Source of the DNA: a bacterium
GTDB lineage: Bacteria; Patescibacteriota; Minisyncoccia; Phycocordibacterales; Phycocordibacteraceae
DNA length: 64,000 bases
Assembly (NCBI GenBank): GCA_037200965.1
Contig: JBBCGK010000001.1
Location: forward strand, 96,001 to 160,000
Reading direction: 5' to 3'
Shown here: positions 60,001 to 63,000 of the stretch, one piece after another
Layout of the letters: every line of letters begins with the position of its first letter
How positions within the stretch are numbered: position 1 is the first letter of the stretch
Program-made: the position numbers

Positions 60001-63000
60001 CTCAATGATAAGTTCTTTAAGAACACTCCTTTTGCATGCGAGAAATTGACGGTTAAAAAGGATAAAGTGTTTTTCGAAAAGAACAGCTCTGACGAGGATA
60101 GCTACGGGTACGACATTGAGTGCGTGCTTTTGCAGGATGGTAAGAAGGTAGAAGTCTCGATCGATCCGATAACAAACAAGGTCGGCGCAGATCAAGTTGC
60201 CCATCTCATAGCACATACCGTTTGGGCAAAGCTGGATCAATCGATGACCAGTCAGCTTTGGAAGAATTTTCCAACCAACCTATAAATTTATGCCAAAGGA
60301 AATCGCCAAAAAGTCATTGAATAAGAACTTGCACAAGGCAAGCGCCGCGAAGAAAGATGAGTTTTATACTCAGATTGTTGATATTGAAAAAGAGTTGAAA
60401 CACTACAAAGATCAATTCCGTGGCAAGGTAGTGTATTGCAACTGCGATGATCCATTTGAGAGCAACTTCTTTAAATATTTCGCAGGAAATTTCAATGCAC
60501 TCGGACTGAAAAGACTTATTGCCACTAGTTACAAGCCGTCTCCTATAGCCAATACGCAATTAGGGCTATTTGGCGACATCAAGGCCATAAACACGCCCAA
60601 GGGCCGTCCTAAGGTAACCGCGAACAAATTCATTATCAATGAAGTTGATGATATAGACGGCGATGGCGCATTTGACTTGCGTGATATTGCCGAGCAACTC
60701 AAGGCTAACAAAAACAATGAATGGGCTCCATTAGAGGGTGAAGGAGATTTTAGAAGTGAAGAAAGCATAGAACTGCTGAAGCAAGCTGATATTGTAGTAA
60801 CAAATCCGCCTTTTTCCTTGTTCCGCGAGTATGTCGCACAGCTAGTAGAACACAACAAAAAGTTTTTGATTCTAGGTGACCAAAATGCAGTAACCTATAA
60901 AGAAACCTTTGGCTTCATCAAAGAAAATAAACTATGGCATGGCTACGACAATGGTGGCACAAAATGGTTTCAGGTTCCTGACGATTATGACATTGAGACT
61001 GAATCAAGAATAAAAGTTGAGAATGGTATAAAGTTTTTCAGCATGGGTAGAATTGTGTGGTATACAAACCTCGAGACCACAAAACGTCACGAGAAAATAG
61101 TCTTGTATAAGAAATATACACCAGAGGAATTCCCTAAATATGATAATTCCGATGTTATAAACATCGATAAAGTCTCCGATATTCCGATGGATTATGACGG
61201 AGTGATGGGTGTACCAATTACTTTTGTTGATAAATATAGTCCAGCACAGTTTGAAATTTTGGGTATCGCTAATTCCGCAAGATGGATTGGTTACGAATGT
61301 TTTACCTTGATTAAAGGTAGGAAAATATATAATCGAATTTTAATTAAGCGTAAAAAATAATATGAAAATTGATCTAAACAAAATTACTGTGCGGGAAGTC
61401 GTGAATGGCTACAAAGATGGCTCTGAGGAGGGCGTTGTTGCGTATGGTGGAAAGCTTGATGTGCGCCCGAAGTATCAGCGCGAATTCGTATACAAAGACA
61501 AACAGCGCGATGCGGTTATTGATACCGTTAGAAAAGGCTTCCCTCTCAACGTGATGTATTGGGTGAAAACCGATGACGGAAATTTTGAAGTACTTGACGG
61601 ACAGCAGAGGACAATCAGTCTAGGCCAGTATGTAAATGGCGACTTCTCGGTGGATTTCAATGGTCGCCTCGCTATGTTCCATAACCTTACCAAAGAGGAG
61701 CAGGAACAAATTCTGAACTACGAATTGATGATTTATTTCTGCGAGGGAAACGATAAAGAGAAACTTGATTGGTTTAAGACAATCAATATTGCCGGAGAGC
61801 GTTTAACCGACCAAGAGCTACGCAACGCTGTATATACCGGCCCGTGGCTTTCTGATGCAAAGCTAAAATTCAGCAAATCAAACTGTGCGGCGTATTTGTT
61901 GGCAAACGATGGCGGACAGTTAATTAGCGGCTCGCCGATCCGGCAAGAGTATTTGGAAACCGCACTCTCGTGGATAAATAACGATGAAGTGGCCAATTAC
62001 ATGGCCAAACATCAACACGACGAGAATGCAGAGGAATTGTGGGCTTACTTCCAAAGCGTTATTGCATGGGTACGAAAGACGTTCCCAAATTACCGCAAGG
62101 AAATGACGAGTGTGAATTGGGGTGAGCTATACAACGAATTCAAAGACAAGAAATTGAATGAGACTAAGCTCGAAGCCGAAGTTAAGAAGTTGATGCAAGA
62201 CGAGGACGTGACGAAAAAGTCCGGTATCTACCCTTATGTCTTAACGGGACAGGAGCGAGAGCTTTCTATCCGCGCTTTTACCGACAAGATGAAGCGTGAA
62301 GCATACGAGCGGCAAGATGGCATCTGCCCGTTTTGCAAGAAAAAATATGACATCTCAGAAATGGAGGCCGATCATATTGCTCCATGGCATGAAGGTGGAA
62401 AGACTACGGCCGAAAATTGTCAGATGCTCTGCAAACAAGACAACCGGACGAAGTCTGGAAAATAAGGTTATGAAAGAGTCCCATGAAAATCATCCGAGCT
62501 ATACAATTTTTCTTTCGTAGGATTTCATGGAGACAGAGAACCTCTCCCTCCTTTGCTTTTGAAGTGGACAAAAAACCGAACTGGCTCGTCTATGCTTGGG
62601 GTGTCTTTGCCGGCTTCTTTTACAGCATCTTTCAGCGACGACGCGAGTCATTAAGGGTACTTTACCGCAATCAGGAACGCCGGAAGACTGAGTACACCAT
62701 ACCGATGCAGATCGTGCGGCAGTCTATGGGTACGATCTTGGTTCTAATACTGGCACTGGTCGGAGTAACCCTCGCTGATTGGGGCGTCGAGAAGCTCGCA
62801 AATCTACTCTCTCAGGTGCAGGCCGGCTGGTTTATAGCTTTCGCCGCACACTTTAATTTCTTTACGATTCCCGACAAAGAATTCTTTAAGCTCGTGCTTG
62901 AGATATCTATTGGCGCGATCTCCGCCATCCTCGGACTCTTATTTGCTTTATACGCGGTCGGTCTCCAGCTCACGACCGATAAGTACTCGTCTAAGGTGTC

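Follow-up and report, generated by a model that had tools for sequence, protein, structure and literature searches.

The organisation of a gene pair coding for a DNA methyltransferase (MTase) and a nuclease with DUF262 and HNH domains was analysed in a stretch of 64,000 nucleotides (nt) from a bacterium of the Phycocordibacteraceae (Patescibacteriota; GenBank assembly GCA_037200965.1, contig JBBCGK010000001.1, positions 96,001 to 160,000 of the forward strand). This whole stretch is called the window, and the coordinates below are those of the window unless another locus is named. A preliminary description of the same DNA had proposed two open reading frames (ORFs) of 356 and 367 amino acids (aa) separated by one base, and both were recovered exactly. 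The two genes, termed M (MTase) and R (nuclease), are read here as a probable restriction-modification (R-M) cassette.

The MTase and nuclease genes

The features of the gene pair are as follows.

60290-61360, + strand: M subunit, N6-adenine DNA MTase of the M.EcoRI family, 356 aa (PF13651, PADLOC, identity to M.EcoRI)
60356-60463, + strand: N-terminal signatures of the MTase, DEFYTQ (aa 23-28) and CNCDDP (aa 50-55), conservation 0.88-0.96
60542-60739, + strand: MTase variable segment 1, aa 85-150, low conservation, with insertions and deletions (indels) and discrete subtypes
60800-60814, + strand: MTase catalytic motif IV, TNPPF, aa 171-175 (from translation)
60938-61057, + strand: MTase variable segment 2, aa 217-256, candidate target-recognition element with at least 8 discrete types among the loci
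61358-61364, + strand: junction of M stop and R start, TAA-t-ATG, one spacer base (read from sequence)
61362-62465, + strand: R subunit, DUF262/ParB-fold NTPase-like domain, helical middle and HNH nuclease, 367 aa (Pfam, PADLOC, AlphaFold2)
61362-61856, + strand: ParB/Srx-fold (DUF262) domain of the nuclease, aa ~1-165, with P36-x-Y38-Q39-R40 and E76...D79-G-Q-Q-R83
62274-62465, + strand: HNH (beta-beta-alpha-metal) domain of the nuclease, aa ~305-367 (PF01844; PDB 4h9d, E=2.3e-5)

The MTase was compared with family profiles and with known enzymes. The Pfam search gave a match to PF13651 (EcoRI_methylase) over profile positions 1-303 of 345 with E=4.4e-133, and the PADLOC model MTase_II PDLC03297 matched residues 6-356 with E=2.3e-118. 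The identity to authentic M.EcoRI from small E. coli plasmids was 45-50% over the full length. The full-length profile match and the NPPF motif place the protein in the M.EcoRI family, in accordance with the N6-adenine MTase carrying TNPPF that had been proposed; the doubt whether its S-adenosylmethionine-binding motifs might be lacking is answered by a full-length enzyme of this family with NPPF intact. Among 70 loci the block aa 171-180 showed a column conservation of 0.99, and N172, P173, P174 and F175 are invariant, M.EcoRI included. The DEFYTQ and CNCDDP signatures are likewise invariant in the comparison with M.EcoRI, and the region is presumed from its sequence to bind S-adenosylmethionine. 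The enzyme presumably methylates the N6 position of adenine in a short target on host DNA. No PDB relative of the MTase was detected by sequence at E<=1, and no MTase family of NCBIfam matched, the only matches there being sub-threshold ones to Cas9d/IscB HNH.

The conservation profile of the 70 loci revealed three variable, indel-rich segments of the MTase at roughly aa 85-150, 217-262 and 325-345. The types of segment 2 differ in length and align poorly among themselves, one of them being M.EcoRI-like. The segment stops just ahead of two invariant residues, W257 and H267, whose counterparts in the M.EcoRI ORF are W226 and H236. The latter two are presumably W225 and H235 in the numbering of the literature, and a specificity-checkpoint study of M.EcoRI reportedly featured an H235N mutant. 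From these sequence features we infer segment 2 to be a candidate target-recognition domain (TRD); instead, the variable segments may be specificity-neutral. Those of the window MTase are unlike the segments of M.EcoRI, and therefore the GAATTC specificity cannot be assumed for it. A separate observation concerns segment 1, which holds an EF-hand-like loop, DDIDGDGAFDLRD, of the pattern DxDxDGxxDxxD at aa 120-132 (60647-60685). The loop is kept in two segment-1 subtypes and M.EcoRI is without it; a calcium-binding loop would be unusual for a DNA methyltransferase.

The nuclease was analysed in the same way. PF03235 (GmrSD_N, DUF262) matched residues 34-158 with E=1.1e-18 and PF01844 (HNH) matched residues 322-365 with E=1.6e-11, the C-terminus also matching PF14279; no match to PF07510 (DUF1524) was obtained at E<=0.01 in the Pfam search. 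Thus both nuclease profiles named in the preliminary description were found, together with PF13651 in the MTase. The PADLOC model REase_II PDLC03418 covered nuclease residues 1-367 against profile positions 1-372 of 372, with E=1e-146. On translation, DGQQR lies at aa 79-83 (61596-61610), and so the motif is present as described, not at the N-terminus itself, where it had been put, but some 80 residues in, inside the N-terminal domain. The HNH motif stands at the C-terminus as proposed, its elements being CPFC (aa 322-325), DH (aa 337-338), N352, C357 and N361. In 22 diverse nucleases, with identity down to 40%, the residues P36, Y38, Q39, R40, E76 and D79-G-Q-Q-R83 of the first domain and C322, C325, D337, H338, N352, C357 and N361 of the second are invariant. 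Hence both nuclease active sites, as well as the NPPF of the MTase, are invariant across the family members compared. Outside these sites the nuclease is evenly conserved along its whole length, with no hypervariable segment.

An AlphaFold2 model of the nuclease from a 72-sequence alignment had a mean predicted local distance difference test score (pLDDT) of 91.9. The fold neighbours of this model were BrxU (top), SspE and ParB/Noc, along with the HNH domains of Cas9, McrA and Gme; for the N-terminal domain as modelled, BrxU and SspE are the nearest folds. By sequence, the relatives among solved structures were HNH domains only, plus a marginal BrxU (7p9k, E=0.013), and no similarity to SspE was detected. 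In BrxU, mutants of DGQQR lose nucleoside triphosphate (NTP) hydrolysis and phage resistance, and mutants of the HNH motif keep hydrolysis and lose cleavage (PMC8565348). In SspE, DGQQR is essential to GTP hydrolysis and the motif is needed for defence (PMC9646914). On account of these roles, the nuclease is read by analogy as a putative NTP-gated HNH endonuclease.

Linkage, distribution and exchange of modules

The association of M and R was examined in loci selected from either side. The nuclease-selected set comprised one genome per species, 80 loci with 68-85% nuclease identity, spanning CPR (candidate phyla radiation)/Patescibacteria, Gammaproteobacteria, Bacteroidota, Firmicutes, Planctomycetota, Chloroflexota and several archaea. 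An EcoRI-family MTase gene was found upstream on the same strand in 75 of the 80. In four of the five loci lacking it the nuclease is at a contig edge; in the fifth (L054) a degraded RhuM-like gene lies upstream, as between M and R in L017, and the contig stops where the MTase would begin. MTase-selected metagenome loci were counted only when at least 900 nt followed downstream, and the nuclease was present in 57 of 63 such loci. For MTase loci on viral contigs the figure was 29 of 62, the other 33 having no intact nuclease. Among the loci examined, practically no nuclease lacked an MTase gene. M can thus stand alone and R almost never does, an asymmetry to be expected of a classical methylation-protected R-M system. 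Eight viral contigs (L163, L170, L171, L187, L189, L191, L219 and L223) carry an intact MTase followed by nuclease remnants of 42-194 residues, which fits with phages keeping the protective MTase after loss of R.

The gene order was M then R in all loci. A 1-nt spacer or a 4-nt ATGA overlap separates or joins the genes in most of 70 nuclease-selected loci and in the distant nuclease clade, and translational coupling of M and R at the TAA-t-ATG junction of the window is probable. The identities of M and R co-vary (Spearman 0.71 for 122 adjacent pairs), and the pair is kept down to 38-41% nuclease identity. The preliminary description had held such nucleases to be normally unpaired with a methyltransferase and had named a chance neighbourhood as the alternative. 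Neither idea survives the comparison, as the pairing is kept in about 95% of homologous loci and is the rule in this family, for both proteins of which PADLOC holds full-length models; among the enzymes it named, SspE itself is paired with a DNA-modification module (PMC9646914).

The family comprises at least 527 clusters at 50% identity (E<=1e-30), with hosts among CPR bacteria, Proteobacteria, Firmicutes, Bacteroidota, Actinobacteria, archaea and phages, and occurs also on plasmids carrying optrA or mef/msr resistance genes. Plasmids from cultured bacteria also carry the pair, with a nuclease identity of 39-61%; there the NCBI Prokaryotic Genome Annotation Pipeline (PGAP) names the proteins 'DUF262 domain-containing protein' next to 'adenine-specific methyltransferase EcoRI family protein', and the RefSeq/NCBI names for the window proteins are these same two only. 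Cultured carriers include Macrococcoides canis Epi0082 (pMiCAN82a), Enterococcus faecium (pDY32-optrA) and strains of Sulfitobacter indolifex and Aeromonas caviae with the pair on plasmids. The 7.5-kb plasmid pLa3_1 of Ligilactobacillus agilis La3 has four annotated genes, MerR, M, R and rep, with the MerR-family gene in the position abutting M. A further copy of the pair is on Flavobacterium phage laban6-1. Only M and R are conserved while the flanking genes vary, and therefore the conserved mobile unit is M+R. In 12 of 121 loci the gene abutting M codes for a helix-turn-helix protein of XRE type, about 70 aa long and similar to a controller (C) protein. The M-R junction itself was noticed as an insertion hotspot for same-strand cargo (L012, L016, L017, L018, L023, L032, L046 and L229); across loci the cargo includes Fic-like, DUF2130-like, RhuM-like and GIY-YIG-like genes, small membrane proteins and, in L023, a second copy of the MTase, and in L229, an Enterococcus dispar plasmid, the optrA resistance gene stands between M and R.

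The variation of the two partners was also compared. In the main nuclease clade the nuclease was more conserved than the MTase in 97-99% of pairs, and among the 56 comparable loci selected by the MTase this was so in 42. This is not a general rule, since between the two nuclease clades the relation is reversed (nuclease 38-41%, MTase ~49%). Pairs with at least 85% nuclease identity carried different segment-2 types in 90 of 154 cases, and in L023 two tandem MTases of different types precede a single nuclease. An evenly conserved nuclease beside shuffled MTase modules argues that the nuclease probably has no matched recognition domain of its own, and thus no matched reader of the target sequence. 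Which target it takes may instead be set by the MTase or, more generally, by methylation status, and the pattern in the sequences hints that the MTase supplies the target specificity.

Genomic surroundings of the pair

The genes around the pair in the window are as follows.

54775-56550, - strand: large serine recombinase (Resolvase, Recombinase and Zn_ribbon_recom domains)
58547-59254, + strand: AbiEi antitoxin (PADLOC AbiEi, E=3.9e-58)
59251-60285, + strand: AbiEii nucleotidyltransferase toxin, 344 aa (PADLOC AbiEii, E=2.3e-77; Pfam PF08843 supports the AbiE pair)
62528-64000, + strand, running past the window end: DUF2254 membrane protein, 827 aa, downstream of the nuclease

The pair lies inside an island of low guanine-cytosine (GC) content, 41-53% against ~60% elsewhere in the window, which also holds the large serine recombinase, small phage-like genes and AbiEi/AbiEii. 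Both AbiE proteins match their profiles and form a type IV toxin-antitoxin pair; about 115 residues at the AbiEii C-terminus fall outside the PADLOC and Pfam models. The MTase gene starts 4 nt after the end of AbiEii on the same strand, and AbiEi/AbiEii, M and R are probably one transcription unit. AbiE was considered as a part of the M-R system and ruled out, an AbiEii homologue being beside the MTase in just one other locus (L001). A scan of 58300-62700 for promoters and terminators gave fewer sites than shuffled sequence, and therefore operon boundaries cannot be called from it.

A group I catalytic intron was detected at 54608-54852 (Rfam RF00028, 64.1 bits against a gathering score of 50, E=1e-14). 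The intron sits in an apparent split tRNA gene (54590-54900, + strand), whose 5' exon begins at about 54590 (TCCGCGGTAGCTCAATGGTAGAGCAGCTCC...) and whose 3' exon ends with GGTTCGAGTCCTGGCCGCGGAGCCA at 54900; ARAGORN gave no call for the gene at these positions. In antisense, about 125 nt at the 3' end of the ORF for the serine recombinase overlap the split tRNA and intron region. The split tRNA may be the attachment site of the island. The tRNA 3' end was found to recur neither within the window nor in the next 16 kb (L226), and a repeat search for the island borders gave nothing convincing.

Beyond the window (L226:11122-21104) follow a gene for a DUF2726 protein, a deaminase-like gene and an XhoI-type restriction endonuclease (REase) with an Eco57I-type MTase. 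The same arrangement was found on at least three public contigs of metagenome-assembled genomes, where it continues some 9 kb further downstream into the DUF2254 and DUF2726 genes and the XhoI-type R-M system. Because of these genes, the region downstream of the nuclease suggests a larger defence island.

Two other regions of the window were observed. A second low-GC island at 38000-45500 (35-39% GC) contains GT4 glycosyltransferases, a Wzx-type polysaccharide flippase and a PMT_2-like protein, and looks like a horizontally acquired surface-polysaccharide cluster unrelated to the M-R pair. Two perfect hairpins with arms of 14 nt (53254-53285) and 20 nt (53300-53341) lie 3' of a DinB/IMS-family polymerase gene (51749-53002); their matches to the sX6 small RNA, on both strands, were weak and below threshold, and they are probably terminators.

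Classification, proposed mechanism and alternatives

The pair was compared with the R-M classes and with the closest known systems. The adjacent genes match the PADLOC models MTase_II and REase_II end to end, so that the family is already catalogued as Type II R-M by PADLOC and the locus would be annotated so automatically. The dependence of R on M that is typical of Type II systems is borne out by the linkage counts (75/80 and 57/63), with L225 and L228 as possible exceptions. The absence of an NTP requirement, a further mark of Type II, may fail here, as the invariant DGQQR NTPase motif suggests. No published description of this pairing of an MTase with a DUF262-HNH protein was found in the literature searched. 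An 'HNH R-M' system of Paracoccus (PMC11473606) was considered and set aside, its enzyme of 16 kDa being unrelated, and papers on H. pylori and on a halovirus mention DUF262 only in passing.

On the M side the closest relative is the EcoRI system. The MTase is homologous to M.EcoRI over its full length, with identical NPPF, DEFYTQ and CNCDDP motifs, and both systems occur as two-gene cassettes on small plasmids. They differ in gene order, R.EcoRI being encoded upstream of its MTase whereas in the window the ParB-fold and HNH protein is encoded downstream. The partner nucleases are unrelated; R.EcoRI is an enzyme of the PD-(D/E)XK type.

On the R side the GmrSD, SspE and BrxU architecture claimed in the preliminary description is only partly retained. 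The DUF262 domain with DGQQR is present in the nuclease, and its modelled fold resembles BrxU and SspE. GmrSD-family membership was rejected, because the C-terminus is an HNH domain of PF01844/PF14279 in place of DUF1524 (PF07510), and because the gene context, with its near-obligate linkage to an MTase, is not that of a stand-alone enzyme. GmrSD and BrxU are both stand-alone, modification-dependent enzymes (PMC8565348, PMC4619093). Compared with them, the window nuclease has a PF01844 HNH domain with a Cys4-type zinc site, is ~200 residues shorter, is linked to an MTase and shows marginal sequence similarity at best (the BrxU match noted above). The SspABCD-SspE and DndBCDE-DndI systems differ in that they place phosphorothioate by a multi-gene pathway, whereas here a single MTase would place N6-methyladenine (m6A), and their nuclease domain is of another type; neither the window nor the 21-kb locus L226 contains sspABCD or dndABCDE phosphorothioation genes. 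The PADLOC models of Menshen NsnA (E=2.3e-27) and PD-T4-2_A (E=8.2e-11) match the N-terminal ~130 residues of the nuclease. The likeness covers the DUF262 core only; those proteins have other partners, with neither an HNH domain nor a paired MTase (PMC12065111).

The division between a conserved nuclease and a variable MTase resembles Res versus Mod-TRD of Type III, or HsdR versus HsdS of Type I, more than a classical Type II system. The likeness is a functional analogy only, that of a conserved NTP-using nuclease subunit beside an MTase with exchangeable specificity modules. The NTP-binding fold of the nuclease differs from that of Type III in being ParB/Srx; neither a superfamily 2 (SF2) helicase or translocase nor a PD-(D/E)XK domain was found by Pfam, and the fold search gave ParB and HNH only.

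The reading which we consider probable is that of a methylation-protected R-M cassette, in which M marks host adenines and an NTP-gated R cuts unmarked DNA. The atypical R-M module envisaged in the preliminary description is thereby supported, and the modification-sensing module it had offered beside it is less likely. R essentially never occurs without M, M often stands alone, M is translated first and the two travel as a mobile unit, which together form the signature of methylation-protected restriction. On this proposal the MTase would place an N6-adenine mark in a short target on host DNA, and R would be translated behind M by coupling, so that no R is made without M. The nuclease would then cut DNA lacking the mark, e.g. 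incoming phage or plasmid DNA, cleavage being gated by NTP binding and hydrolysis at DGQQR as in BrxU and SspE. On loss of the cassette the nuclease would cut the host chromosome.

Several observations weigh against this reading. The PADLOC models presumably derive from clusters of REBASE sequences, predicted ones included, and may thus encode a prediction and not a measurement; moreover, methylation, cleavage and NTP dependence are reported for no family member in the literature searched. Two loci pair an intact nuclease with a probably inactive MTase. In L225 the protein P0148 (L225:6001-8067) is a continuous ORF in which an MTase-like half, with NPPF changed to FPSF and both DEFYTQ and CNCDDP lost, is fused to an intact DUF262-HNH nuclease, and no other MTase lies within the 9-kb locus. 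Its host reads TGA as tryptophan; the in-frame TGAs are all in the nuclease half, the placeable ones at conserved tryptophan positions of the family, and the junction holds no stop of any kind, by which a read-through artefact is ruled out. The other locus is the Chryseobacterium taklimakanense plasmid NZ_CP034172.1 (L228:2062-2897), where the MTase is frameshifted near residue ~270 and the nuclease is intact; the frameshift may be genuine, making the gene a pseudogene, or may come from a sequencing error. Such loci would be incompatible with a strictly lethal R unless a second MTase protects the host or the records are in error. They could be accounted for by another protecting MTase, by a non-catalytic role of the MTase fold, or by an R less lethal than assumed. 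Further, the 90 of 154 module mismatches fit poorly with a simple Type II enzyme having a fixed recognition site of its own.

A doubtful but distinct proposal is that the pair represents an R-M class of its own and not true Type II, in which exchangeable MTase modules recognise the sequence and a specificity-agnostic ParB-fold NTPase-HNH protein is recruited or licensed at unmethylated sites. The nuclease might there act as an NTP-switched clamp, sliding or dimer-cycling like ParB and BrxU, and the division of labour might be called 'Type III-like' with a ParB/Srx switch replacing the helicase. P0148 would be a single-chain version, its dead MTase fold serving as DNA reader only. It is rather unlikely that the nuclease works instead by SspE-like sensing of self, the DUF262 domain reading host m6A so that methylated DNA stimulates or sequesters the NTPase and self is spared while the HNH domain makes nicks in invader DNA lacking the mark; methylation would then act as an activating or positioning signal and not simply block cleavage. 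The sensing patch of SspE recognises the phosphorothioate sulfur (PMC9646914), the Pfam search revealed no m6A-reading domain (winged-helix, YTH, SRA or similar), and sequence similarity is marginal to BrxU and undetected to SspE. The genomic data do not separate this mode from classical blocking.

A modification-dependent Type IV nuclease like BrxU or GmrSD, directed at hypermodified phage DNA with the MTase as an independent orphan-type or epigenetic passenger, would share its DUF262 fold with those families and would explain both the MTases standing alone in viral contigs and the two crippled MTases beside intact nucleases. It leaves the near-obligate linkage from the nuclease side, the M-then-R order, the coupling and the co-divergence without rationale, and the defining DUF1524 domain is lacking; an m6A-dependent nuclease next to an m6A MTase would be self-destructive. 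We consider this alternative very unlikely. Most improbable of all is a selfish homing or mobility cassette, whose HNH protein would be a homing or nicking endonuclease spreading the cassette and whose MTase would shield the occupied site. The very broad horizontal spread, with 68-88% identity in carriers ranging from bacteria and archaea to plasmids and phages, the variable flanks with conservation limited to M+R and the cargo inserted at the M-R junction are in its favour. Neither a conserved insertion site nor a flanking repeat was seen, and to our knowledge homing HNH enzymes usually have neither an NTPase domain nor a cognate MTase. Selfish mobility is general to R-M systems, and so it is a facet of the methylation-protected cassette more than an alternative to it.

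With this locus the window has yet another copy of a two-gene R-M cassette that is very common and already catalogued, and its presence there is ordinary. Uncharacterised in the literature searched is the ParB-fold NTPase-HNH protein as an R subunit; in the experimental literature examined, the ParB/DUF262 fold was not found in a methylation-protected R-M system, GmrSD and BrxU being stand-alone enzymes and SspE a phosphorothioate sensor. The family may be unconventional in mechanism. If the nuclease is NTP-gated and takes its specificity from the MTase, it would be a new mechanistic type of restriction enzyme, and the compact system could be given another specificity by exchange of the MTase. 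In many organisms that are hard to manipulate, such cassettes are probable barriers to transformation.

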